Assembly: GCF_000008625.1 (NCBI RefSeq)
Contig: NC_000918.1
Span: 1,260,001-1,292,000, forward strand
Source: Aquifex aeolicus VF5
Lineage (GTDB): Bacteria; Aquificota; Aquificia; Aquificales; Aquificaceae
Length of the DNA stretch: 32,000 nt
Direction of reading: 5' to 3'
The notes below the pieces were generated by a model that saw only the letters and a list, made by a program, of their open reading frames with translations, had not been told where the DNA came from and searched no databases. Made by a program: the position numbers and the translations under genes. Each line of letters opens with the position of its first letter. The stretch's first letter is position 1. Shown piece after piece: positions 4,237-27,965 of the stretch.

Positions 4237-5730
4237 TTAAAATTTCTTAAGTTCTATGCCGTACTTCTTTATCCTGTAATCCAGCTGCCTTAAGGTGTAG
4301 CCGAGGAGTTTTGCCGCACGTGATTTTACGTAACCCGTTTTCTCCAGAGCTTCTATTATCCTTTTCTTCTCCGTCTCCTCTATAAACTTCGGAAGGTCAC
4401 CCGTTTTCCTTTCTCTCTTCCTCAAAAGTTCGGGAAGTTCAGAAGAGGTAACTCTTCCGTTGTTTAAGATGACGACCCTTTCTAGTATGTTTATCAATTC
4501 CCTTATATTACCTGGATAATCGTACTCCAGTAAAACTTCCAAAGCGTCTTCCGAGAGGTAAACTTCCTTGCCGTACTTCTTATTCAATTCCTTTAAGTAA
4601 TACTCAATCAATATCGGGATGTCTTCCTTCCTTTCCCTGAGGGGCGGAACGTAAAGAGGTACAACGTTTATCCTGTAGTAAAGATCTTCCCTGAACTTGC
4701 CTTCTTTGACTAGTTTTTCAAGGTCTTTGTTCGTTGCCGTTATTATCCTCACGTCCACTTTTATAGGTTTTTCACTTCCGAGTCTCTCAATCTCCCTTTC
4801 CTGAAGGGCTCTCAGGAGTTTTGCCTGGAGGGAAAGGGGCATGTCCCCTATCTCGTCGAGGAAGATGGTACCCCCGTTTGCCAGTTCAAACTTTCCTTTT
4901 TTAGTCGTATAAGCTCCCGTAAAGGCTCCCTTTTCGTACCCGAAGAGCTCCGACTCCAGAAGAGTTTCCGGAATGGAGGCACAGTTTACGGTAAGGAAGG
5001 GCTTTTCCCTCCTGCTGCTCTCGTAGTGGATTATCCTCGCAATTAAGCTCTTTCCAGTCCCGCTTTCTCCGAGTATGAGAACGGTGCTGTCGGTTTTCGC
5101 CACCTTTTCTATAGTGTCTATTAATTCCCTCATAACCTTACTCTTTCCGATGAGACCGTGAAGGGAATACTTTTCGCTCAGTTCCCTCGTCAGTTCCTTT
5201 CTCTGCTCTTCCCAAGCTTTTTTCTCACTCTCAAACTTTTCCCTTAACTTGAAAAACATACCGAGGAGGTTTCCGATTACGTTAATCGTCTGGTAGAAGT
5301 TCTCTAGACTCTCTTTATCACTAAACTCCTTGAATATCGTAATAACACCCTTAACCTCTCCACCAACCTTTATGGGAGCTGCTATGAGAGCGTGTTTTTC
5401 CGTGAGAAGCCTGCCTATTCCCGTTTTATTGGCAAAGGCGGAATTGTGTTTTACGTTAGGTATAACGAGGGGAATCCCCCTCTGGAACACCTTACCCGTT
5501 ATCCCTTCACCTTTTTTAAATGCCACGTCCTTATTCAGAAAGTACCCGTAAGAACTAGCAATCCTTAAGGTATTACCCTCCCTTATTGCTATAAAACTGT
5601 GTTCCACACCGAGGTAAGAGTAAAGGACCTTCAAAACTTCCTTTAAGCTCTCTTCAAAGGTATAATCACCCGTGAGGATTTTCGTTATCTCGTTTACAAC
5701 GTTTATCTCCTTTAATTTCAGTCTCTCCAT
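4237..5730 (-). CDS. Sigma-54-dependent transcriptional activator with an N-terminal GAF domain (NifA-like bEBP)
   Basis: 497 aa. GAF-like N-terminus, Walker A GESGTGKS, the sigma-54 contact loop GAFTGA, and a C-terminal Fis-type HTH (RAAKLLGYTLRQLDYRIKKYG). Confidence 0.92.
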   Translation of the reverse strand: MERLKLKEINVVNEITKILTGDYTFEESLKEVLKVLYSYLGVEHSFIAIREGNTLRIASSYGYFLNKDVAFKKGEGITGKVFQRGIPLVIPNVKHNSAFANKTGIGRLLTEKHALIAAPIKVGGEVKGVITIFKEFSDKESLENFYQTINVIGNLLGMFFKLREKFESEKKAWEEQRKELTRELSEKYSLHGLIGKSKVMRELIDTIEKVAKTDSTVLILGESGTGKSLIARIIHYESSRREKPFLTVNCASIPETLLESELFGYEKGAFTGAYTTKKGKFELANGGTIFLDEIGDMPLSLQAKLLRALQEREIERLGSEKPIKVDVRIITATNKDLEKLVKEGKFREDLYYRINVVPLYVPPLRERKEDIPILIEYYLKELNKKYGKEVYLSEDALEVLLEYDYPGNIRELINILERVVILNNGRVTSSELPELLRKRERKTGDLPKFIEETEKKRIIEALEKTGYVKSRAAKLLGYTLRQLDYRIKKYGIELKKF

Positions 5731-5736
5731 TTATTT

Positions 5737-5943
5737 TTAATTTAGCTTTTCAAGAACTTTCTTCGGAACGAAGCGCCTTACCTTTTCACTGTTTAAAACC
5801 TTTTTCACAAAGTTCGGATAGGCTTTGTAAAAGCAAAAGAGCGCAGGAATGAAAAAGGGGCTTGACGGAATTATCGGTAGTATAAGACCTATAATTCCGA
5901 ATATTGAAAGGATAACTCCGCAAATCACGTAAAGAAACTTCAT
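5737..5943 (-). CDS. Small inner-membrane protein, DUF454/YbaN-like
   Basis: The LPIIPSSPFFIPALFCF motif resembles the YbaN family. I prefer the ATG at 5943 (MKFLYV...) because it forms an ATGA overlap with the upstream stop and follows a purine-rich AAGGGAAGGA RBS. The ORF track starts at 5961. Confidence 0.6.
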   Translation of the reverse strand: MKFLYVICGVILSIFGIIGLILPIIPSSPFFIPALFCFYKAYPNFVKKVLNSEKVRRFVPKKVLEKLN

Positions 5944-6720: not shown

Positions 6721-7503
6721 ATGAGAATACTTGCCATCGGAGACATCATAGGCAGACCCGGAAGGAAAGCCTTAAGAGAACTCCTGCCGCAACTCAAGGA
6801 AGAGGTAGCCTACGACGTCGTTATAGCAAACGTTGAAAACTCCGCAGGAGGCTTTGGGATAACCAAGAAGGTTTACGAGGAGCTCCTTGAGATAGGCATA
6901 GATGTAATGACTTCGGGAAATCACATCTGGGATAAGAAGGAGGTTTACAACTTCATCGGTGAAGCCTACAACCTTCTGAGACCAGCAAATTACCCCGAAG
7001 GCGTTCCCGGGAGGGGTTACGGGATATTCAAGAAAAACGGCGTTGAGTTCGCGGTAATAAACCTTATGGGAAAGGTTTTCATGGACTGTAACCTAGAAAA
7101 TCCATTCAAAACCTTTGACAGGATATACGATGAACTGAAGGACAAGGTAAAGATAATTGTCGTAGACTTTCACGCAGAAGCTACTTCCGAGAAGTGGGCT
7201 TTCGGGATTTACGTGGACGGGAGGGCTTCCTTTGTGTACGGCACGCACACACACGTCCCCACCGCGGATGAATTTATCCTGAAAAAGGGAACTGGTTACG
7301 TGAGCGATATCGGAATGACTGGTGTATGGTACTCCGCAATAGGAATGAAACCAAAGGAGGCGATAGAACGTTTTCTTTTAAGCCTGCCGAGGAGGTTTGA
7401 AGTGGAGGATAAAGGAGAGATAATGTTCAACGCAGTTCTCGTTGACATAGATGAAGAAACAGGTAAAACTAAGAGTATAGAGAGGATAAAGAGGTTCCTA
7501 TGA
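6721..7503 (+). CDS. ymdB: YmdB-like metallophosphoesterase (2',3'-cyclic-nucleotide phosphodiesterase family)
   Basis: 260 aa. MRILAIGDIIGRPGR, NVENSAGGFG, GNHIWDKKE and DFHAEATSEK are typical of the YmdB/TIGR00282 family. Confidence 0.85.
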   Translation: MRILAIGDIIGRPGRKALRELLPQLKEEVAYDVVIANVENSAGGFGITKKVYEELLEIGIDVMTSGNHIWDKKEVYNFIGEAYNLLRPANYPEGVPGRGYGIFKKNGVEFAVINLMGKVFMDCNLENPFKTFDRIYDELKDKVKIIVVDFHAEATSEKWAFGIYVDGRASFVYGTHTHVPTADEFILKKGTGYVSDIGMTGVWYSAIGMKPKEAIERFLLSLPRRFEVEDKGEIMFNAVLVDIDEETGKTKSIERIKRFL

Positions 7504-8042
7504 GGGAGGTAATAACGCTTCTCTTTGCACTCGTTTCGTTTATACACGGAAGCATTTCGGAGAAGTACGAACTATACAGAGAGTTTTTAGAAACAAAGAA
7601 TGTAAAACTCGCGGAGAAAATTCTCAGAAAGTATCCGAACGCACCTTTTAAGAACGAGCTTTATATATTTCTTATTGAGAAGTACTACAGGACGAACCCG
7701 CGTAAGGCGAAAATTTTTATAAAAAAGCTGAACGTAAAAAGAATTCCGTATTACAAGGTAAAGGAATTTGTAAAGATTTACAAAAAGCTGGGACTTAATT
7801 TAAAACCTTTTGTGGTACAATATCCCGAGTTTTTCTTAAAAGATTTAAGAAAGTTCAAACTTTCCCAGGAGGAAAGGGAAAAAATAGCAAAGAGATTGTA
7901 CAGATTGAGGAAGTACAGGTACGTACTGAAATTAACAAAGGACTGTTACCTCAAGGGAAAAACTTATTACAGATTAGAAAAGTACAAAATAGCGGAAAGG
8001 ATATTAAAAAACTGTCCAAAGAAAGAGCCCAAAAGTTTTTGA
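7500..8042 (+). CDS. slt: Soluble lytic transglycosylase, N-terminal fragment (signal peptide plus helical-repeat region)
   Basis: 180 aa with a signal-peptide-like N-terminus and a K/Y/L-rich helical-repeat composition. ATGA overlap with the ymdB stop. Its reading frame continues into the next ORF after a -1 shift at 8006-8012. Confidence 0.7.
   Translation: MREVITLLFALVSFIHGSISEKYELYREFLETKNVKLAEKILRKYPNAPFKNELYIFLIEKYYRTNPRKAKIFIKKLNVKRIPYYKVKEFVKIYKKLGLNLKPFVVQYPEFFLKDLRKFKLSQEEREKIAKRLYRLRKYRYVLKLTKDCYLKGKTYYRLEKYKIAERILKNCPKKEPKSF
8006..8012 (+). other. A_AAA_AAC heptamer in the zero frame of the slt N-terminal ORF (possible -1 slip site or homopolymer indel site)
   Basis: Zero-frame codons are tta|aaa|aac, so positions 8006-8012 fit the X_XXY_YYZ pattern. 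The -1 frame is open from here into the SLT-domain ORF. Confidence 0.3.
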
Positions 8043-9118
8043 TTTACGTTTACCTAAAGCAACGTGCCTATAAAAAAGCCGAAAAATTTGTAAGGAGTAA
8101 GAAAAATCCTGAGCTTTACTTTATCCTTGGAAGGGAGTTATTAGAAAGGGGACTTGCGAACAGAGCTATTACTTTTCTGAAAAACTCTATGAATACGGAA
8201 GCGAACTTTTCCCTTGGCTTGGCTTACTACCTGAAAAAAGACTACGAGAAGGCTAAACACTACTTTTTGAGCTACCATCCGCCAGACGAACTGGGAAAAG
8301 GAAAAAGAGATTTCTGGCTTTTTAAAACGTATCTTCAGCTGGGAAACTCCGAGAAAGCTCTTGATTACTTAAAAAAGGCTTCTTCTTACGATAACTTCTA
8401 CGGAGCTGTTTCAAGAAAGTTATTAGGTTTGAGGGTGTATAAACCTGTTCAGTTTTCTTCCGTTGAACCGCCGAGGTTGTTTCCCGAACTTTACAGAATA
8501 AGAGAATTGGGATTTTTGTCTTACATGCGATATGAAGCTTTCAGGCATGAACACCTGGCTACCACGGGAGATGTCCTTTTGATTTCAAGGATTGATCCGT
8601 ACACGTCAATAAGACTCGCCGTAAAAAAGTACGGTGTGAAGTCGGAAATATACAGGGTGGTTTCTCATCCCACTCCCTACGAAAATCTGGTTTTTGAAGC
8701 TGCCCAAAAGTTTGAAGTACCGGTTCCCCTTATATACGCAGTTATGAGACAGGAAAGTTTATTTGATCCGTACGCTGTTTCCTCTTCAGGAGCAAAGGGG
8801 TTGATGCAGTTGATTGATTCAACTGCGAGGTGGAAGGCGAAAAGGCTCGGTTTAAAGATCAGGAGCGTGTTTGATCCAGAGACGAATATAACACTCGGTA
8901 CAGCTTACCTGGCTTTTTTAATGGATTACTGGAACGGAGATTTAATTAGAGTTATTGCTTCTTACAACGCCGGACATGGAGCCGTTAGTAGATGGAAGAG
9001 GTACGAGGACGACTTCTTATTTATAGAACTGATTCCCTACAACGAAACGAGGAATTACGTAAAAAGGGTTTTATACAATTACTACGTTTATTCGGAAAAG
9101 TTAGAAAAGGGTCTCTGA
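8039..9118 (+). CDS. slt: Soluble lytic transglycosylase, C-terminal fragment with the catalytic SLT domain
   Basis: 359 aa. Catalytic motif VMRQESLFDPYAVSSSGAKGLMQL plus SYNAG. The TTG start is an ORF-caller artefact: the frame is open upstream to at least 7979. Confidence 0.85.
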   Translation: MIYVYLKQRAYKKAEKFVRSKKNPELYFILGRELLERGLANRAITFLKNSMNTEANFSLGLAYYLKKDYEKAKHYFLSYHPPDELGKGKRDFWLFKTYLQLGNSEKALDYLKKASSYDNFYGAVSRKLLGLRVYKPVQFSSVEPPRLFPELYRIRELGFLSYMRYEAFRHEHLATTGDVLLISRIDPYTSIRLAVKKYGVKSEIYRVVSHPTPYENLVFEAAQKFEVPVPLIYAVMRQESLFDPYAVSSSGAKGLMQLIDSTARWKAKRLGLKIRSVFDPETNITLGTAYLAFLMDYWNGDLIRVIASYNAGHGAVSRWKRYEDDFLFIELIPYNETRNYVKRVLYNYYVYSEKLEKGL

Positions 9119-9493
9119 CTCTTCCAGTTCTTCTACTGGTCTTCTTCCCGCAAAGCCTTCGTTCAATTCGTGCCAGTACATAATCGTTTCTTCATCTTCC
9201 TTCCAGCATAGCCATATGTACCTTCCGTTGTGTTCGGAGAGGAAATCAACCAGTAAGGGGTCAAGACCTTTTATAACTCCCCCGAGTTCCTCTATACGAG
9301 CGAGATGTCTCTTTATTTGGGCTTCCAGTTCTTTTATTCTCGTCTTTACGTACATTTGTTCCAGTTCGTCTTCCTGAGCGTTTAACTCTTCGTACAGGTT
9401 TCTCAACTCTTCTTTTTTATGTCTTATGTCCTCCGCAATTGGCTTTATCTTGACAAGCAGGTCTCTTGCCTCTTTTAACGTAAATACCCTCAT
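9101..9493 (-). CDS. DUF2203-family protein
   Basis: 130 aa. N-terminal coiled coil, then GGVIKGLDPLLVDF...IWLCWKEDEETIMYWHELNEGFAGRRP, which matches my memory of the DUF2203 pattern. Its 3' end overlaps slt by 18 nt (convergent). Confidence 0.7.
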   Translation of the reverse strand: MRVFTLKEARDLLVKIKPIAEDIRHKKEELRNLYEELNAQEDELEQMYVKTRIKELEAQIKRHLARIEELGGVIKGLDPLLVDFLSEHNGRYIWLCWKEDEETIMYWHELNEGFAGRRPVEELEESETLF

Positions 9494-9540
9494 GCCACAA
9501 ATATACTAACTTTTCACAGACAGATTTATGAGGAAAACCA

Positions 9541-10521
9541 TCACTCTCCCATCAGGATTTCGTTTTCTATTTCAAAGTAAACGTAGTAGGCGTTTACAGG
9601 GTTCACGTTAAAGAATACAGGCACCTGAGCGTAAGAGGGATCTATCTTTATCAACTCCTCGTTTATCCTCTCCCTTACGCACTCAACGTCACAACCCTCT
9701 TCGTAGAGTTTCCTTATAGTTTCCCTCAGATCCTTTATGTACTTCCTCGTCCAGCTTACCGCTTCTTTTATCTTTTTCTCACCAATTAAAGCTTCCCCGT
9801 GTCCCGGAAGGAGTATTCTTGGTTTCATCTTAAGAATTTCGTCAAGACAAACAAGCCAAGTTCTTGAGTTCCCAGAGCCTAAAAAGGGCAGTCTTCCGTC
9901 AAATACTATGTCCCCGCTGAAGAGTACCTTTTCGTCGGGTATCCATACGACTATATCTCCGTTCGTGTGAGCCCTGCAAAGGTGCAAGACTTCAAACCTT
10001 TTGTACTCCTTTCCCACCTGAAGGTAGACGTTTAAGTTTTTGGTAAGTGTTATAGTTGGAGGAGTTAATTCCGTTCCTTCCAGATGTTCCTTTAAAATTT
10101 TCTTTCTTGCTAAAAAGAAGTTGTAACTCGAAGGTTGGGATATGTAATCGAATGCCCACTCGTGGGCTATAACTTCAGCTCCAACTTCTCTGAAAGCTTT
10201 TGCACCGTAGAAGTGGTCGGTGTGATAGTGTGTGACGACTAAAAACCTTATGGGTTTATTCGTAACGCTCCTGATGCTTTCTATTAATTCCTTCCCTAGT
10301 TTGTAAGTGCTCAAAGCATCCACAACGAGAACGCCGTCATCGGCTACGTAGAAGTAGGCGTTGGATATAAAACCCCTGTTTTCGTAAGATACCTGTTCGT
10401 AGACTCCGAAAACTCCGTAAATCCTGTCGGTTATCTTCCTTAACGTTTCCTTTACGTGTTTAGGATACTCACTCGAGAAGGAGAATAAAACCAGGAGAAA
10501 AAAGAAGAGAAAGCCCCCCAT
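9541..10521 (-). CDS. Secreted metallo-beta-lactamase-fold hydrolase (SoxH-like)
   Basis: 326 aa. Signal peptide, HxHxDH motif (THYHTDH), and later H/D ligands (HTNGD, PGHG). It is the last gene of the sox operon. Confidence 0.8.
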   Translation of the reverse strand: MGGFLFFFLLVLFSFSSEYPKHVKETLRKITDRIYGVFGVYEQVSYENRGFISNAYFYVADDGVLVVDALSTYKLGKELIESIRSVTNKPIRFLVVTHYHTDHFYGAKAFREVGAEVIAHEWAFDYISQPSSYNFFLARKKILKEHLEGTELTPPTITLTKNLNVYLQVGKEYKRFEVLHLCRAHTNGDIVVWIPDEKVLFSGDIVFDGRLPFLGSGNSRTWLVCLDEILKMKPRILLPGHGEALIGEKKIKEAVSWTRKYIKDLRETIRKLYEEGCDVECVRERINEELIKIDPSYAQVPVFFNVNPVNAYYVYFEIENEILMGE

Positions 10522-10542
10522 AATACTCTCCTGAGTTTCTAT

Positions 10543-11424
10543 TCAGGGTTCTTTTGGCAGGTTTGTTTGTGAGTACTCGTTCCAAGAACCGTCGTACAAC
10601 CTCACCTTATCCGTAAGCCCGAGGTAATACTTTATCACATAGTAAGTTGCCGCGGACATAAGCCCCTGTCCGCAGTAAAGGATTACTTCCTTTCCTTTTC
10701 CTATACCGAGACTCTCGTAAAAGAGGCTTATATCTTCCTTCGGTTTTAGTAAGTAGTACTTTTTTCCGTACTTGTTAACGTGCTCTTCAAAATCTTGTTT
10801 CCAGAACCTGTTTACGGCTCCCTTTATGTGTCCCAGCCTCTTCCAGAATCCGGCCTTTCCTTCGTAAAGTTCCGGTGTCCTGGCATCGAGAAAGACTACG
10901 TCTTCTCTGTTTAAAGCTTTTTTAACGTAATCGAGGTCGGCTCTTATACTTTTGTTTATCGTATACTTTCCGTAACGTTTTTCTTTAACTTTCGGATAAT
11001 CCTTTGTCGTAGGTAGATCCTTATCCTTCCAGTGGTTAAATCCTCCGTGAAGGACGTATACTTTTTTGTGGTTTATGTAATCAAGTCCCCAAGCTACGTA
11101 AAAGGGGATGAAAGTCCCCTCAGCGTCGTATAGAACGACGGGAGTGTTCTTATCTATTCCGAGTTTTTCGAGTTTTTTGACGAATATTTCCGTGTGTAAG
11201 AAGAAAGCAGGAGTTCCACCTTTCGGAAATCTGAAGGCTTCAAAGTGCACCCACTGGGCTCCGGGTATGTGCTCCTTCCAGTATTCCTTTATGCTTTTCC
11301 TGAGGTCTATTATGACAAGGTTTTTCTCCTCTTTTATAAGTTTGTGGAGTTCTTCAGGCGAGATTAAGTAAATCTTTGCAAAGGAAAGTGTAAAAAAGAG
11401 TAAAAACAAAATTACTCCTCTCAT
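10543..11424 (-). CDS. Secreted tandem-rhodanese sulfurtransferase
   Basis: 293 aa. Signal peptide and two rhodanese-like halves. The second half carries a candidate active-site loop, YCGQGLMS. Confidence 0.85.
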   Translation of the reverse strand: MRGVILFLLFFTLSFAKIYLISPEELHKLIKEEKNLVIIDLRKSIKEYWKEHIPGAQWVHFEAFRFPKGGTPAFFLHTEIFVKKLEKLGIDKNTPVVLYDAEGTFIPFYVAWGLDYINHKKVYVLHGGFNHWKDKDLPTTKDYPKVKEKRYGKYTINKSIRADLDYVKKALNREDVVFLDARTPELYEGKAGFWKRLGHIKGAVNRFWKQDFEEHVNKYGKKYYLLKPKEDISLFYESLGIGKGKEVILYCGQGLMSAATYYVIKYYLGLTDKVRLYDGSWNEYSQTNLPKEP

Positions 11425-22505: not shown

Positions 22506-22994
22506 ATGGAACTGGATCTCATAAGTTACGAACTTGACGAGAAAACTAAGGAAGGAATAGAGAAGGTTGTTGAGAAGTTCTTTACTAAAGCTGAACCAGA
22601 TTTAGTGCTCATATTTGACAAAGCAGGCAGGATACTCGCCTGTAAGGGGATGGATATCTCCGATACTTACTCCGAGTTCATATCAAGTATTCTCAGTGCT
22701 CTGTTCTTCGCCTCCGAAGAACTCACATCGATGCTGGACAAAAACGACGAGATGAAGGACGTGTTTTACGAGACAAAAAACAGGGTGTTTTTAATGGCAA
22801 GACTTGAAAAAGACTTCCTTATCGGAGTAATATCGAGGAAAAACCTATCTCTGGGAAGTATCAGACTCTTTTTCAATCACCTTGTGTCCGACCTCAACGC
22901 AGTTCTTAAAAACCTTAAAGAAGTAGAAAAGAAGAGTCTTAAAATTTCTAAGGAAGAGTTGAAGAAGAAACTGGATCAGATTCTGGGAAGCTGA
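22506..22994 (+). CDS. Roadblock/LC7 (MglB-like) protein with a C-terminal K/E-rich helix
   Basis: 162 aa. DLVLIFDKAGRILACKG...SSILSALFFASEEL...VFLMARLEKDFLIGVISRKNLSLGSIRL follows the Roadblock/LC7 alpha-beta-alpha pattern. Its stop lies 1 nt before the GTPase start. Confidence 0.7.
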   Translation: MELDLISYELDEKTKEGIEKVVEKFFTKAEPDLVLIFDKAGRILACKGMDISDTYSEFISSILSALFFASEELTSMLDKNDEMKDVFYETKNRVFLMARLEKDFLIGVISRKNLSLGSIRLFFNHLVSDLNAVLKNLKEVEKKSLKISKEELKKKLDQILGS

Positions 22995-22995
22995 A

Positions 22996-23421
22996 ATGAA
23001 GCTGAAAATAGTGTTCTTCGGTGCAAGTCTTGCAGGTAAGAGTACCACGGTGAGAAAGCTTTACGAGATTTTAAAGGAAAAGGGACTAGTAAAGGGAGAG
23101 TTTATGAGTATAGACACCGACGAAAAAAGGACACTCTTTGTGGAAATGTTCCTCAGTAAGATTCCTATAGACGGTCAGGAAATAGACTTTAAAATCCTCA
23201 CCACTCCCGGGCAGTTCAGACTTCACCCCCTCAGAAAGGCAATAATGCAGGGGGTGGACGGTCTTGTGTTTACCGTCGACTCTCAAACGGGAAGGGAAGA
23301 AATAAACTTTCTCGTTCTTCGTGAAACGGCACACGTGCTTAAGGACTCAACATGGATCTATACTCAATACCCGTCGTTGTTCAGTACAACAAGAGAGATC
23401 TTCCCGACGCACTTCCCATAG
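22996..23421 (+). CDS. MglA-type Ras-like small GTPase, N-terminal fragment (G1-G3)
   Basis: P-loop GASLAGKST, switch I TDEKRTLF, and G3 TTPGQ, as in MglA. From about 23347 this frame reads unrelated sequence (STWIYTQYPSLF...), while the -1 frame carries the rest of the G domain. Confidence 0.8.
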   Translation: MKLKIVFFGASLAGKSTTVRKLYEILKEKGLVKGEFMSIDTDEKRTLFVEMFLSKIPIDGQEIDFKILTTPGQFRLHPLRKAIMQGVDGLVFTVDSQTGREEINFLVLRETAHVLKDSTWIYTQYPSLFSTTREIFPTHFP

Positions 23422-23564
23422 ACGAACTCCAGCCTATATGTAATCCTTGGGACGCACCCTATACGGAAACCGTAGCCACAGAAGGAAAAGGTGTGCTCGA
23501 AACCTTTAAACTAATAGTGGAGAGGGTTCTGGAGAGGGATGTGGAAAGAGAAGGTAAGAGATAA
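23352..23564 (+). CDS. MglA-type small GTPase, C-terminal fragment (G4-G5)
   Basis: IPVVVQYNKRDLP (G4, NKxD) and ATEGKGV (G5). The frame is open from 23343, just after a TAA at 23340-23342. Confidence 0.75.
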   Translation: MDLYSIPVVVQYNKRDLPDALPIDELQPICNPWDAPYTETVATEGKGVLETFKLIVERVLERDVEREGKR

Positions 23565-24606
23565 CATCCTCGGTGAAGTTATCGACTGGAAGGCTTTAAT
23601 AGATTCCTTAAAAAAGGAAAGGTTTACAGGCTACATAAAAGTAGAGAGTTGGGATGAAACGGATTACGTGATACTCGCTGAAGGGAGTGTAAAGAAAATC
23701 GTAAGACATAAGGATAATAAGAAAACCTTTCTGGATACCTCAAATTACACACCCTCTTCGGAGAGTAAGATATCCGTTTACAAATCCTCACCTCTCACGA
23801 CTGCACACATATGCAAAGACTTAAATTTCTTTGAATACCAGACGCTCAGTTTATCGGGTTACGGGGAAGAAATATTCCACTCGGAATTGAATTTAGTGAA
23901 TCCCGAAAAGCTGGAGACCTTCTTCCAGAAAGTTAACCTTAACGGTTACGCTGTGATCTACACGTACACCAGCATTTACTGTAACGTTTTCCTGCTCCAG
24001 GGACATTTGGTAGGAATAAACGGTGGAAACACATGGGATAGTGAAGTTCCTTCACAAAAGGATTTATGGCAGGGAAAAGTCTTTTTATCCGCCTATTTCA
24101 TAGAGCCCGACGAAGTACTTCTTCTCATTTCCCTTAAAAGGGGCTTTAAAGAAAAGAATGAACTTAATGGAAACGGGTTTTTCGTGAACGGAAATTACGT
24201 AGGCTTTGTGGAAAACGGAAACATCAAGAAAGGTTTATTAATCCTTCCTGAGGAAATAGTGGAAACGCAGGAAGTAAAAGGAGAAAAGTTTCTGGAAGTG
24301 AACCTGATAGAAAATCCCGAAAGGCTTGAAATTTCTTTTAAAGACCTCATACCTAAGGAGGAAAAGAAAATCAAACCAGACGTACCCTTAAAGGTAAGAG
24401 AGATATTCCTCGACTACATAGGGCCGGTGGGTAAGATTTTGTGGGACAAGGTACTGCAGGAACTCGACATAAGCCCGGAGGAGTTTACACATCCTACGTT
24501 CAGGATGTTTATAAACAGACTTGCTCAAGAGATACCCGAAGAAGATCTCAGTAAAGAGTTCTTAAATAAAGCCTGGGAGGTTCTGGATGAAAGCACTTCT
24601 ACCTAA
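23539..24606 (+). CDS. 355-aa protein with two DUF4388/PATAN-like modules and a C-terminal helical domain
   Basis: ATG preceded by GGAGAGGG. Overlaps the GTPase 3' end by 26 nt. An approximately repeated pattern: ALIDSLKKERFTGYIKVES..DYVILAEGSVKKI and LETFFQKVNLNGYAVIYT..NVFLLQGHLVGI. The C-terminus reads IFLDYIGPVGKILWDKVLQEL... The family assignment is from memory only. Confidence 0.6.
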   Translation: MWKEKVRDNILGEVIDWKALIDSLKKERFTGYIKVESWDETDYVILAEGSVKKIVRHKDNKKTFLDTSNYTPSSESKISVYKSSPLTTAHICKDLNFFEYQTLSLSGYGEEIFHSELNLVNPEKLETFFQKVNLNGYAVIYTYTSIYCNVFLLQGHLVGINGGNTWDSEVPSQKDLWQGKVFLSAYFIEPDEVLLLISLKRGFKEKNELNGNGFFVNGNYVGFVENGNIKKGLLILPEEIVETQEVKGEKFLEVNLIENPERLEISFKDLIPKEEKKIKPDVPLKVREIFLDYIGPVGKILWDKVLQELDISPEEFTHPTFRMFINRLAQEIPEEDLSKEFLNKAWEVLDESTST

Positions 24607-25486
24607 ATCCATTAAAGGTAAAGTGAGCTTAATTATCGGTTCTATCGCGGTTGCGAGCGGACTGATAACGGGTTTTTACACCTATAACGAAGAAGTAAAA
24701 AAAGCCAAGGAAGTGTCCAAGGAAAAGGTGAGGTTGACTCTTGCCTTTTCAAAGTCTATCAGAGGTTATGTGAGAGAAACACTTAGACCCAAAATATACG
24801 AGCTGATGAACGAGTACAAGTGTATTAAGGAAGACTTCATACTGGAAGCTCAATCCTCTTCCTTCTTGACTTCGAACATTTTCAGAAGTGTAAGCAGAGA
24901 GTTTCAGGGGTTGACTTTAAGGCAAGTGGCTTTCAAACCTTTAAATCCAAAGAACGAACCGACTCCCGTTGAGCAGAAGATAATAGAGTACTTCAGGAAA
25001 ACTAAAGCACCTGAGTACACGGAAATCGTTAACATAAACAACTACAGGTATTTGGTCTCAGCTTTTCCGGTTAAAGTAGAGGCTTCCTGTCTCATGTGCC
25101 ACGGAAAAGTGGAAAATATGCCAAAAGCTGTAAAAGCTATATATAAACCCAAAGAGGACCCGAACTGGAAAGTTGACGAGATACAGGGAGGAATTTTCGT
25201 ATACGAACCCTACGAGGCTACACTTTTGAGGGCACAACTGAGCGGTCTCATAAAGGGAGGAACTATATTCTTCGTAAACATACTCGTTCTCGGTATCATA
25301 CTCTGGATACTAAACCGCTACGTTTTCAGCCCTATAAACGTTCTCAAGGAACACGCGGATAAGATAAGCAAGGGTGAAATAGATGACAGGATACCTGTAA
25401 AGGGAGAAGACGAGATAGGAGAACTCGCAAAGGCTTTTGAGAGAATGAGGATAAGCATAAAGAAAGTTATGGATCTACTCAAGTGA
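24587..25486 (+). CDS. Membrane sensor: TM, periplasmic c-haem domain (DUF3365/Tll0287-like), TM, HAMP, with no output domain
   Basis: 299 aa. N-terminal TM helix, periplasmic domain with CLMCHG (CxxCH, nt 25088-25102), a second TM (about aa 224-244), and HAMP (PINVLKEHADKISKGEIDDRIPVKGEDEIGELAKAFERM). The stop comes 9 residues later. Overlaps the upstream gene by 20 nt. Confidence 0.75.
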   Translation: MKALLPKSIKGKVSLIIGSIAVASGLITGFYTYNEEVKKAKEVSKEKVRLTLAFSKSIRGYVRETLRPKIYELMNEYKCIKEDFILEAQSSSFLTSNIFRSVSREFQGLTLRQVAFKPLNPKNEPTPVEQKIIEYFRKTKAPEYTEIVNINNYRYLVSAFPVKVEASCLMCHGKVENMPKAVKAIYKPKEDPNWKVDEIQGGIFVYEPYEATLLRAQLSGLIKGGTIFFVNILVLGIILWILNRYVFSPINVLKEHADKISKGEIDDRIPVKGEDEIGELAKAFERMRISIKKVMDLLK

Positions 25487-25783
25487 TCTGATAACCTCTT
25501 CTAGGAAGCCCTCCGCTTCCTTCAGAGCTTCGTCACTTCCCTTTAGCTTCGTGTACAGCTCAAGAACTTCCCTTCCTCTGCTGTCGGCAATAAGGGGATA
25601 AATCATCCTAAGCAGAATCATAAGCTCCTTCTTCCTCTCTTCTCCGTTTTTAGATTTGATATTTTCCCACCTTTTCTTTATCAGGCTCACTTCTGTCTTT
25701 CTGATGTCCATAGGGAAAATTTTAAAATACTTGAGGTAATGCCCAGAGCTATTCTGGAGATAAACAGTGAAAGGATAAGACAC
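25475..25783 (-). CDS. Small hypothetical helical protein
   Basis: 102-aa ORF with no recognised family. An alternative start at ATG 25711 (MDIRKTEV..., 78 aa) would remove the 45-nt divergent overlap with alr. Confidence 0.45.
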   Translation of the reverse strand: MSYPFTVYLQNSSGHYLKYFKIFPMDIRKTEVSLIKKRWENIKSKNGEERKKELMILLRMIYPLIADSRGREVLELYTKLKGSDEALKEAEGFLEEVIRSLE

Positions 25784-27539: not shown

Positions 27540-27965
27540 TTACGTCCTCTCGTCCAGTCTTTTTGCGAGGTTCTCCATACTGTCTCTGAGGACGAGGATA
27601 AAAGTCGTAAGGATTGTGGTAACAACGGCCAAGTAGTACTCGCCTGCAGAAACAAGTAGACCTACTATAAATGTAATCAACGCGGAAACTTCGGTGGTTA
27701 TACCCATACTTCTGTCCTTCCAGTAACTAATGGACGCAAGGATTATAAGCCCAAGAAAACTCAAGAAAACGTAAGGAAATTCCCTGTAAAGGAAACCCGA
27801 AAGTGTTCCCAGAACCGCTATCAAAGGGAATGTCCTTATTCCCGCGAAGATGTCGTGTCCGAATTTAGCCCTTATCTCCCTTTCAAGTCCGATAATAAGT
27901 CCGAGGAAAGCAGAAAAAACGATTTTAAATTCGGGGGAGGCGGAGAACTCCTTAAAAAAATCCAT
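27540..27965 (-). CDS. MgtC/SapB-family membrane domain: N-terminal fragment of a split MgtC/DUF4010 gene
   Basis: 141 aa. GLIIGLEREIRAK...AGIRTFPLIA is the MgtC-family signature. Its ATG is directly adjacent to the stop of the upstream membrane-protein gene. Confidence 0.75.
   Translation of the reverse strand: MDFFKEFSASPEFKIVFSAFLGLIIGLEREIRAKFGHDIFAGIRTFPLIAVLGTLSGFLYREFPYVFLSFLGLIILASISYWKDRSMGITTEVSALITFIVGLLVSAGEYYLAVVTTILTTFILVLRDSMENLAKRLDERT

Follow-up and report, generated by a model that had tools for sequence, protein, structure and literature searches.

The window, a stretch of 32,000 nt from the Aquifex aeolicus VF5 genome, carries a four-gene cassette in the order Roadblock/MglB-like protein, MglA-family GTPase, DUF8082 protein and putative haem sensor, an order conserved in Aquificaceae. 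Searches for promoter and terminator signals gave none above shuffled expectation. The features of the cassette are as follows.

22506..22994, + strand: Roadblock/LC7 (MglB-like) protein, 162 aa, first cassette gene (Pfam Robl_LC7, E 2.9e-16)
22996..23564, + strand: MglA-family small GTPase, in two ORFs (22996-23421 and 23352-23564), one base missing
23539..24369, + strand: N-terminal part (aa 1-277) of the DUF8082 protein, three alpha/beta modules (AlphaFold2 pLDDT 91)
24370..24606, + strand: C-terminal four-helix domain (aa 278-355) of the DUF8082 protein with IGPVGK motif, AF1502-like (STAC-like)
24587..25486, + strand: putative haem receptor with terminal HAMP, 299 aa, last gene of the cassette
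24626..24688, + strand: TM1 (about aa 14-34), read from the sequence, inside model helix 9-76
24701..25210, + strand: predicted periplasmic Tll0287-like/sCache_haem domain (aa 39-208; Pfam E 4.7e-32)
24821..24823, + strand: Cys79, invariant in 20 orthologues, candidate for the distal side of the haem pocket
25088..25102, + strand: CLMCH c-type haem attachment motif (C168, C171, H172), invariant in orthologues
25256..25321, + strand: TM2 (about aa 224-245), read from the sequence, inside model helix 209-261
25310..25462, + strand: HAMP domain (aa 242-292) with DEIG connector motif (Pfam E 6.8e-15)
25436..25459, + strand: AS2 signature FERMRISI, an instance of [FI][EDQ]R[ML]RxS[ILM]

The sensor ORF starts with ATG, is preceded by GGGAGG and begins with a Lys-rich N-terminus predicted to be cytoplasmic. 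Its AlphaFold2 model (pLDDT 81) showed an alpha/beta domain between the long helices 9-76 and 209-261, the latter followed by the HAMP helices, and in Foldseek the full-length model had a topology like that of WalK. The original prediction, which had read TM1, an extracytoplasmic domain, TM2 and HAMP in this order, was borne out by the hydrophobic segments, Pfam and the model, and it had placed the CLMCH motif exactly. C-terminal of the HAMP, no further domain was found in Pfam or NCBIfam; HisKA and HATPase were absent from the sensor, and NCBIfam kinase models matched the TM2-HAMP stretch alone. The stop, predicted to come 9 residues after the HAMP, actually lies 7 residues past the Pfam match and 12 past DEIGELAKAFERM. 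That it is genuine, as had been assumed, follows from about 59 Aquificaceae orthologues (44-77% identity, 294-300 aa), all of which possess Tll0287 and HAMP only and end at the same point, so that a chance ORF can be discounted. The end point is kept across Aquifex, Hydrogenobacter and Hydrogenivirga, no orthologue runs on into a kinase, GGDEF or MCP domain, and the last 15 residues are among the best conserved of the protein. Downstream lie a convergent ORF and then the alanine racemase gene. In both the window and A. pyrophilus, the opposite strand carries a gene for an MgtC/DUF4010 membrane protein about 1.2 kb downstream.

The sensor domain scored 111.8 bits (cut-off 24.1) against the Tll0287-like family profile PF11845, with positions 3-144 of its 144 aligned. 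In Foldseek, its model matched 5B82 (E 9.4e-7, TM 0.71) and also GSU0935 3B42 (E 3e-3), while the family profile matched 5B82 at E 5.6e-9. Thus the DUF3365/Tll0287 resemblance suggested originally was correct, and both DUF3365 and HAMP were recovered by the profile search; the label "PAS-type" given along with it did not stand, as the fold, formerly regarded as PAS-like, is now classed as Cache and termed sCache_heme (bioRxiv 10.64898/2026.02.01.703092). The sensor CLMCH aligned with the CLACH motif of Tll0287. Conservation of the CxxCH cysteines, on which the haem assignment had been made to depend, was complete: C168, C171 and H172 did not vary among 20 orthologues, and the Desulfuromonadaceae homologue has them too. 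Met178-Pro179 downstream of the motif, Cys79 and the DFxLE-QSSSF segment that comes after it in the 20 orthologues were likewise invariant, although aa 81-89 had low AlphaFold2 confidence. Cys79 and Met178 are therefore listed as invariant candidate axial ligands; neither could be aligned with the axial Cys of Tll0287, the profile alignments to 5B82 spanning aa 106-208 only. The domain is predicted to be extracytoplasmic, lying between two hydrophobic helices with the Lys-rich N-terminus and the HAMP on the opposite side. Attachment of c-type haem requires an extracytoplasmic location, and the predicted topology fits this; haem is presumably bound covalently.

The HAMP domain directly follows TM2 and is the sole cytoplasmic domain, an arrangement kept in the orthologues; its DEIG motif occupies aa 275-278. 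Among PDB entries, the best HAMP match to the sensor family profile was that of Af1503 (E 1.6e-9), whereas the best natural chemoreceptor (MCP) and NarQ HAMP entries gave E 1e-3 or worse. Of 32 HAMP-terminal receptors representing six lineages, 31 had the motif [FI][EDQ]R[ML]RxS in the AS2 helix, as against none of 31 HAMPs with output domains, showing that the motif is specific to the HAMP-terminal class.

The gene immediately upstream, for the DUF8082 protein, overlaps the sensor gene by 20 nt. Profile-profile comparison matched its module 1 (E 2e-5) and module 2 (E 2e-4) with the N-terminal domain of archaeal DUF2226, and on this sequence evidence the first two modules appear related to PATAN/DUF2226; DUF4388/PATAN was present in 33 of 149 distant relatives of the protein. 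No relation of the modules to Roadblock was found. A DUF742 match was absent from the protein and present in one of the 149 distant relatives. Whole-chain Foldseek of the model returned sliding-clamp matches only, which at TM 0.14 were meaningless and were rejected. The C-terminal domain is modelled as four helices (281-294, 297-309, 318-330 and 335-353). Its family profile matched PDB 5A1Q (AF1502) at E 2.2e-9, and hhalign against the archaeal AF1502 family gave a probability of 88% and E 3e-6, establishing homology to AF1502 at the level of profiles. This domain is also carried by Ser/Thr kinases and winged-helix proteins and is thus not exclusive to HAMP receptors. Among the bacterial lineages, fusion partners of the AF1502-like domain are PATAN-like or Roadblock-like modules, both belonging to families linked with small GTPases. 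We propose that the C-terminal domain is a HAMP-docking module.

The GTPase is split into two ORFs by the lack of a single base between 23344 and 23345. An independent assembly (L009, 99.9% identical) reads AAGGAACTC where the window has AAGG-ACTC, and its gene encodes 189 aa; the orthologues are intact as well (187-193 aa). The intact protein, with the motifs GASLAGKS (P-loop), TTPGQ and NKRD, aligned nearly over its full length with Thermus thermophilus MglA 3T12 (E 6.8e-35) and matched M. xanthus MglA at 9e-32, versus about 1e-7 for Rab/Ras; it is a member of the MglA family. The Roadblock gene lies directly upstream of the GTPase gene in every Aquificaceae locus, and the best matches of its product to PDB sequences were MglB, though weak (E 0.04).

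The flanks of the cassette differ: Aquifex has NfeD and alr there, Hydrogenobacter type IV pilus genes and Hydrogenivirga leuA. In loci of the Hydrogenivirga type, a second pair consisting of a DUF8082 protein (395 aa) and a dCache_3/HAMP-only protein (371 aa) is located on the far side of the same Roadblock-GTPase pair, and some loci carry just this second type of pair. This modularity indicates that each HAMP-only sensor has its own DUF8082 partner while one GTPase module is shared. Neither MCP or kinase genes near the cassette nor a transporter gene accompanying it were conserved across Aquificaceae loci. The original prediction had looked for the output in the overlapping upstream genes; the conserved, modular gene order supports this, as does the relationship of the DUF8082 protein to AF1502, whose gene is known to accompany that of the HAMP-only receptor Af1503.

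A HAMP-only receptor adjoins a gene for an AF1502-like domain in six lineages, irrespective of the type of sensor. The C-domain was encoded within 3 kb of 28 of 31 HAMP-only receptors and of none of 31 HAMP proteins with output domains, counts drawn from few lineages and phylogenetically non-independent loci, several of them retrieved through the adaptor itself. Loci from Acidobacteria, Desulfuromonadaceae and Archaeoglobaceae were reached by HAMP similarity alone. In Acidobacteria, a 4HB_MCP+HAMP protein of 262 aa has as neighbours a REC-PATAN protein and one that contains the DUF8082 C-domain, and in Desulfuromonadaceae a Tll0287+HAMP protein of 302 aa is likewise associated with a C-domain gene; the Roadblock-likeness of single proteins in these two groups was weak (E 1e-3 to 1e-2). 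Among the Archaeoglobaceae, represented by orthologous Archaeoglobus genomes other than A. fulgidus itself, the AF1502 orthologue comes next after 10 of 11 Af1503 orthologues, the receptor matching 4CQ4 at E 1e-151 and the small protein being about 93% identical to 5A1Q. A DUF2226/PATAN-like gene is near 7 of the 11, accompanied in 5 of these 7 by a Roadblock gene, four of which were assigned by profile or Pfam match and the fifth (L022) by eye only. Three metagenome loci (L056 type), found by adaptor search alone in a scan run with a narrower C-domain family than the full diverse alignment, encode TM+HAMP-only proteins of 128-134 aa, followed in order by a Roadblock-like+C-domain protein, a Roadblock protein, a PATAN protein and a small GTPase. 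A GTPase gene beside the receptor was thus seen in two of the six lineages only, Aquificaceae and the L056 type; the loci of Archaeoglobaceae, Acidobacteria and Desulfuromonadaceae have none within 10 kb. The occurrence of HAMP-only receptors in Aquificaceae and other bacteria extends to bacteria a class described as archaeal.

Taken as a pathway, the cassette probably connects a haem-based NO or redox sensor through its HAMP and the AF1502-like adaptor to an MglA/MglB-like switch. The sensor would be a dimeric inner-membrane receptor with a periplasmic single-Cache domain carrying covalent c-type haem and with the HAMP as its only cytoplasmic part. A ligand or redox change at the haem would be transmitted through TM2 to the HAMP four-helix bundle, which would drive no fused kinase or MCP module; instead, the AS2 helix and short tail (FERMRISIKKVMDLLK) would be read by the AF1502-like domain at the C-terminus of the DUF8082 protein, whose gene lies immediately upstream and is presumably translationally coupled to that of the sensor. 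The PATAN-like modules of this adaptor would then act on the MglA-family GTPase and its Roadblock/MglB-like partner, altering the nucleotide state of the GTPase or its recruitment to the membrane, and MglA-GTP would be the actual output, with the polarity or motility machinery as probable target. Both the physical contact between HAMP and adaptor and the effect on the GTPase are what we infer from these relationships. Judged by the only protein of this architecture that has been characterised, the ligand is most likely NO; otherwise redox or O2 status would be sensed.

That characterised protein is the TM-sCache_haem-TM-HAMP protein of P. azotoformans (34.5 kDa), a dimer with an NO koff of 6e-4 per s and no stable O2 complex (bioRxiv 10.64898/2026.02.01.703092). 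It belongs to the same Pfam family, has CxxCH and, compared by description, apparently shares architecture and size with the Aquifex sensor, no cytoplasmic domain besides the HAMP being mentioned for it. The paper names no downstream partner of its HAMP (bioRxiv 10.64898/2026.02.01.703092); the Aquifex locus offers a candidate module.

In archaea, receptors of the Af1503 type are coupled to AF1502-like proteins both in gene order and in translation; AF1502 folds as a bundle of four helices, has an LGPx(x)A motif and is related to the STAC domain (PMC4834066). Like the Aquifex sensor, Af1503 of Archaeoglobus fulgidus (PDB 2L7H, 4CQ4) has the HAMP as its only cytoplasmic domain, ends 6-10 residues later, carries ER[ML]RxS in AS2 and has an adjacent, overlapping gene for an AF1502-like domain with the motif [IL]GPxx[AG]. 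The Aquifex sensor differs in being bacterial and in having a c-haem Cache input. AF1502 is a free 68-aa protein, whereas the Aquifex domain is encoded upstream of the receptor and fused to about 277 aa of PATAN-like modules, in an operon that, unlike the Af1503 locus, includes an MglA/MglB-like pair. Separate, convergent genes encode the DUF2226/PATAN-like and Roadblock proteins of Archaeoglobaceae, with no GTPase gene close by.

That a membrane sensor can work together with a Roadblock protein and a small GTPase has a precedent in the actinobacterial conservons (PMC4316618). The conservons (CvnA-D, Mfp) resemble the Aquifex cassette in combining a HAMP sensor, a Roadblock/MglB protein, a third protein of adaptor or GEF type and an MglA-family GTPase in one operon, and the GTPase is the presumed output, as proposed here (PMC4316618). 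However, CvnA has a histidine-kinase-like ATPase module, which the Aquifex sensor lacks; CvnC is a DUF742 protein, whereas the third Aquifex protein is DUF8082 (PATAN-like plus AF1502-like); and the Aquifex GTPase belongs to a different MglA group, in a different phylum. With the MglA/MglB systems of Myxococcus and Thermus, the cassette shares a clear MglA homologue and an adjacently encoded Roadblock partner, the latter resembling MglB only at the weak level given above. In Myxococcus and Thermus, mglBA is not known to be accompanied by a gene for a dedicated membrane receptor. In M. xanthus, mglA is not near the genes of the known signalling partners Frz and RomR (PMC4316618).

Among the other explanations, the receptor and its AF1502-like partner might modulate a transporter, the MglA/MglB genes being merely co-located. 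The paper that describes AF1502 suggests that it acts in solute transport rather than GTPase signalling, and notes its relationship to the STAC domain of SLC5-linked kinases and the transporter genes around Af1503-like receptors, including the MgtE-like gene that opens the Af1505-Af1502 operon (PMC4834066). The MgtE-like gene is also present in locus L013 (7347-8507), and the MgtC/DUF4010 gene mentioned above could be counted on the same side. Nevertheless, what is conserved with the cassette is not a transporter but Roadblock, GTPase and PATAN-like modules, and it is to modules of GTPase-linked families that the bacterial AF1502-like domain is fused, which makes a transport function unlikely.

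The haem might also serve electron transfer or scavenging, with the HAMP as a dimerising anchor that tethers the adaptor and relays no signal. This would accord with the report that about half of the sCache_haem domains are stand-alone and redox-protein-like (bioRxiv 10.64898/2026.02.01.703092) and with the L056-type proteins, which have no sensor domain at all. It is nonetheless improbable, for the same adaptor and HAMP class are combined with dCache_3, 4HB_MCP and the Af1503 sensor, as is typical of interchangeable inputs; a canonical DExG HAMP stands right behind TM2; and the characterised protein of the same architecture has NO-binding kinetics of the sensor type.

A co-receptor, associating through its membrane and HAMP helices with a full-length chemoreceptor or histidine kinase encoded elsewhere, is conceivable in that HAMP bundles are dimeric and modular, the Af1503 HAMP functioning in Tar, EnvZ and cyclase chimeras (PMC3585426, PMC3570549). 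We regard it as very unlikely, since MCP and kinase genes are not conserved around the cassette and since a dedicated partner is indicated by the AS2 motif, which is specific to the class, and by the strict adjacency of AF1502-like genes. Finally, a truncated sensor kinase or MCP, its stop due to sequencing error or recent mutation, is refuted by the identical stop in orthologues down to 44% identity, the conserved final residues and the convergent ORF and alanine racemase gene that follow, even though the window has two single-base deletions relative to the independent assembly, at 23344/23345 and 27549/27550, both in other genes.

With the adaptor-mediated GTPase pathway as the preferred reading of the cassette, a wider generalization may be put forward more tentatively: HAMP-only receptors, Af1503 included, might be a widespread class in bacteria and archaea in which, instead of a fused enzyme being driven, an AF1502/STAC-like domain would dock on the ER[ML]RxS surface of AS2 and control Roadblock/PATAN regulators of MglA-family GTPases. 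Haem-Cache sensors, including the HAMP-only one of about 300 aa that binds NO, and the coupling of Af1503 to AF1502 are already published. The searchable literature yielded no report that links a HAMP-only receptor to a GTPase module, and searches for DUF8082, DUF2226, Af1503 with Af1504, DUF4388 with HAMP, and PATAN with HAMP and Roadblock returned nothing relevant.

Af1503 gave the first HAMP structure and much of what is understood of the HAMP mechanism. To our knowledge, its output was never identified, and it is usually labelled an orphan or non-signalling receptor. The Aquificaceae cassette suggests a partner, acting as a Rosetta stone in which the AF1502-like domain is fused to PATAN-like modules and linked by operon to an MglA/MglB-like pair, so that a concrete pathway from HAMP through the AF1502-like domain to a small GTPase can be drawn. 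If correct, this would be a prokaryotic counterpart of receptor-to-G-protein coupling, with the window containing its NO- or redox-responsive version. It would suggest what acts downstream of the periplasmic NO sensors of the haem-Cache type, which were described only recently, and "bacterial G-protein" signalling of the conservon kind would then also occur outside Actinobacteria, in deep-branching thermophiles and in archaea. Every component is small and thermostable, with structures available for the Af1503 HAMP, AF1502 and MglA/MglB.

The sensor was encoded by the last of four genes in a cassette in which neighbouring genes overlapped or sat within 1 nt of each other. The cassette and the features downstream of it were as follows:

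22506-22994: Roadblock/LC7 gene, cassette gene 1
22996-23564: small GTPase gene, cassette gene 2
23539-24606, plus strand: gene for a 355-aa DUF8082 protein, cassette gene 3 (PF26309 by public precomputed annotation)
24587-25486, plus strand: sensor ORF, 299 aa, with an ATG start and a GGGAGG ribosome-binding site
25088-25102, plus strand: CLMCH motif of the sensor, C168-H172
25475-25783, minus strand: convergent 102-aa ORF overlapping the sensor stop codon
26704-27396 and 27540-27965, minus strand: MgtC/DUF4010 membrane-protein gene, split by a deletion at 27549/27550

The original prediction, that the ORF at 24587-25486 encoded a Tll0287-like domain, a second transmembrane helix (TM2) and a HAMP domain, was borne out by sequence reading and Pfam, with PF11845 at aa 39-208 (E 4.7e-32) and PF00672 at aa 242-292 (E 6.8e-15), and the CLMCH motif was found where it had been placed. 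No domain was detected by Pfam C-terminal of the HAMP, matches to NCBIfam kinase and MCP models were confined to the TM2-HAMP stretch, and the protein ended 7 residues past the Pfam HAMP match. An AlphaFold2 model (pLDDT 81) consisted of a TM helix, an alpha/beta domain, a TM helix and the HAMP, in that order; in Foldseek searches, the whole chain was WalK-like and the periplasmic domain matched Tll0287 (5B82, E 9e-7, TM 0.71) and also GSU0935. The stretch aa 143-183, containing the CxxCH and, a few residues on, Met-Pro, resembled haem-binding stretches of cytochrome c7-like proteins (domain profile to PDB 8K9E, E 1.7e-3), which fits a published proposal that a piece of a cytochrome was the source of the haem motif.

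About 59 sensor orthologues were found among 5.8 billion proteins searched. They came from Aquifex, Hydrogenobacter, Hydrogenivirga, and uncultured Aquificaceae, had 44-77% identity, and without exception were 294-300 aa long and possessed Tll0287 and HAMP without a further domain. In an alignment of 20 orthologues, C168, C171, and H172 were invariant, as were C79, the DFxLE-QSSSF segment, M178-P179, and most positions of the last 25 residues. The original prediction could have failed through orthologues reading into an output domain or through non-conserved CxxCH cysteines; since all of the approximately 59 were Tll0287 and HAMP only and the CxxCH was invariant, neither was observed. Judged from these sequences, the stop directly past the HAMP is real.

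The four genes and their order were kept in A. pyrophilus, Hydrogenobacter thermophilus, and Hydrogenivirga caldilitoris, where the flanking genes differed from one genome to the next. The GTPase was an MglA homologue (E 6.8e-35 to T. thermophilus MglA 3T12 versus about 1e-7 for Rab/Ras); for the Roadblock protein, MglB gave the best matches among PDB sequences, and these were weak. In Hydrogenivirga-type loci, a second pair, encoding a 395-aa DUF8082 paralogue and a 371-aa dCache_3+HAMP protein that likewise stopped 7 residues past its HAMP, lay upstream of the Roadblock and GTPase genes, and certain loci carried this second pair alone. Each HAMP-only sensor therefore has a DUF8082 gene of its own, while the GTPase module is shared. 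In H. thermophilus (locus L002, nt 6923-10735), genes for a T2SSE ATPase, an FtsA/PilM-like protein, and T2SSK were located directly 3' of the cassette; these are of the type IV pilus or type II secretion type and, in this one genus, hint at motility or polarity as the target of the MglA-like switch.

In its AlphaFold2 model (pLDDT 91), the DUF8082 protein was composed of three alpha/beta modules and, C-terminal to them, a four-helix domain (C-domain) whose first and second helices had an IGPVGK motif between them. When 1.84 billion cluster representatives were searched exhaustively with profiles, full-length relatives numbered only about 28, and the N-terminal modules matched DUF4388/PATAN and archaeal DUF2226 proteins. 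The C-domain (about 75 aa) was found again in many proteins of other kinds, and in 105 of 133 occurrences it ended no more than 15 aa before the C-terminus; its carriers included PATAN-like, Roadblock-like, and winged-helix proteins, as well as a few Ser/Thr kinases and proteins of 60-110 aa in which it stood alone, so a weakness is that it is not exclusive to HAMP partners. Its profile matched PDB 5A1Q (E 2.2e-9), which is AF1502 of Archaeoglobus fulgidus; this protein has been described as a bundle of four helices with an LGPx(x)A motif and has been related to the STAC domain (PMC4834066).

Korycinski, Hartmann and Lupas described the HAMP as the sole cytosolic part of Af1503-like receptors, to which AF1502-like proteins of 60-90 residues are often genomically coupled, translationally in A. 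fulgidus; Roadblock and GTPases go unmentioned there (PMC4834066). Af1503 is the classic receptor without an output domain (PMC3570549, PMC3585426), and the sensor resembled it in being HAMP-only and in the HAMP itself, that of Af1503 being the closest of all PDB HAMP domains to the sensor family profile (E 1.6e-9 versus 1e-3 or worse for the best natural chemoreceptor and NarQ entries). The likeness extended to gene arrangement. When genomes were scanned with the HAMP peptide of Af1503, 11 Archaeoglobaceae loci were obtained. In one of them (L013), the receptor was orthologous to Af1503 over its full length (E 1e-151 to 4CQ4), and its gene shared 4 nt with a 68-aa ORF whose product was about 93% identical to AF1502. 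Such small ORFs were present in 10 of the 11 loci (E 6e-7 to 2e-4 with a broad C-domain profile), and seven had a DUF2226 (PATAN-like) gene nearby, five of these together with a Roadblock-type gene (four by profile or Pfam match, L022 by eye only). Another gene of L013 (nt 8553-9158), with equivalents in L014-L016, L022, and L023, overlapped the start of the Af1503 orthologue; its product of about 200 aa, a coiled coil with a C-terminal CDC48_N/AbrB-like barrel (Pfam CDC48_N, E 1.5e-6), may be an additional part of the archaeal system. In L012, an 84-aa ORF (nt 1533-1787) with the motif YLGPEAKLFL overlapped the end of another HAMP-only receptor; it was AF1502-like in appearance and below significance with the C-domain profile.

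By HAMP similarity alone, two further receptors were reached: a 262-aa 4HB_MCP+HAMP protein of Acidobacteria, neighboured by a REC-PATAN protein and a 206-aa protein with a C-terminal C-domain (E 1e-10), and a 302-aa Tll0287+HAMP protein of Desulfuromonadaceae, two genes from a 221-aa protein with a C-terminal C-domain (E 2e-8). In the reverse approach, a Roadblock-like+C-domain adaptor family (hhalign probability to Roadblock 89%) led to three metagenome loci with the order TM+HAMP-only receptor (128-134 aa), Roadblock-like+C-domain, Roadblock, PATAN, and small GTPase. As a control, 31 HAMP proteins with output domains (457-1248 aa) were taken from the same Af1503-HAMP scan; a C-domain lay within 3 kb of none of these versus 28 of 31 HAMP-only receptors (Fisher p about 2e-13, for loci that are phylogenetically non-independent and were in part retrieved via the adaptor itself). 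In the AS2 helix of the HAMP, 31 of 32 HAMP-only receptors shared the motif [FI][EDQ]R[ML]RxS[ILM], whereas all 31 HAMPs with outputs had the usual FNxM-type sequence.

We infer haem attachment, ligand, HAMP-adaptor contact, and GTPase effect alike: a periplasmic haem-ligand or redox event would be relayed through TM2 to the HAMP, the AF1502-like domain of the DUF8082 adaptor, which is translationally coupled to the sensor, would read the conformation of the AS2 helix and tail of the HAMP, and the PATAN-like modules of the adaptor would act on the MglA-like GTPase together with its MglB-like partner, with MglA-GTP as output. A weakness is that only two of the six lineages have GTPase genes alongside the receptor. 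NO is the favoured ligand, because the sole characterised protein of this architecture, the TM-sCache_haem-TM-HAMP protein of P. azotoformans (full-length, 34.5 kDa), is a dimer that releases NO slowly and does not form a stable complex with O2 (bioRxiv 10.64898/2026.02.01.703092). The main rival is that the AF1502-type partner serves solute transport, the role proposed and favoured by those who described AF1502 (PMC4834066), but it is weakened because no transporter gene was conserved with the cassette among the Aquificaceae loci compared. Haem-Cache sensors, HAMP-only receptors, Af1503-AF1502 coupling, and conservons, operons joining Roadblock, small GTPase, and sensor, are already known. 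Absent from the searchable literature outside subscription journals were an AF1502-like partner common to bacterial HAMP-only receptors of several sensor types, its fusion to PATAN- or Roadblock-type modules, a receptor, adaptor, and MglA/MglB-like pair in one operon, and the AS2 signature of the HAMP-only class.

The GTPase gene was split into two ORFs by one A missing at 23344/23345 of the window; it was intact in L009, an independent assembly 99.9% identical, and in all orthologues, and the frameshift is either a mutation of the strain or an error made in sequencing the source genome. Compared with L009, the window lacked one further base, at 27549/27550 (CCTC-TCG versus CCTCTTCG), within the MgtC/DUF4010 gene that is a single ORF of 420-427 aa in L009 and A. 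pyrophilus. The presence of two such frameshifts within 9 kb suggests that the source record contains sequencing errors. In L009 (nt 5001-5899), the sensor gene itself was split (181 and 122 aa) because one A of the run GTGGAAAATATG was missing, which may be a homopolymer assembly error or real variation. The convergent ORF at 25475-25783 had no match in Pfam or NCBIfam; at its place, a gene of 76-78 aa was called in A. pyrophilus and L009.
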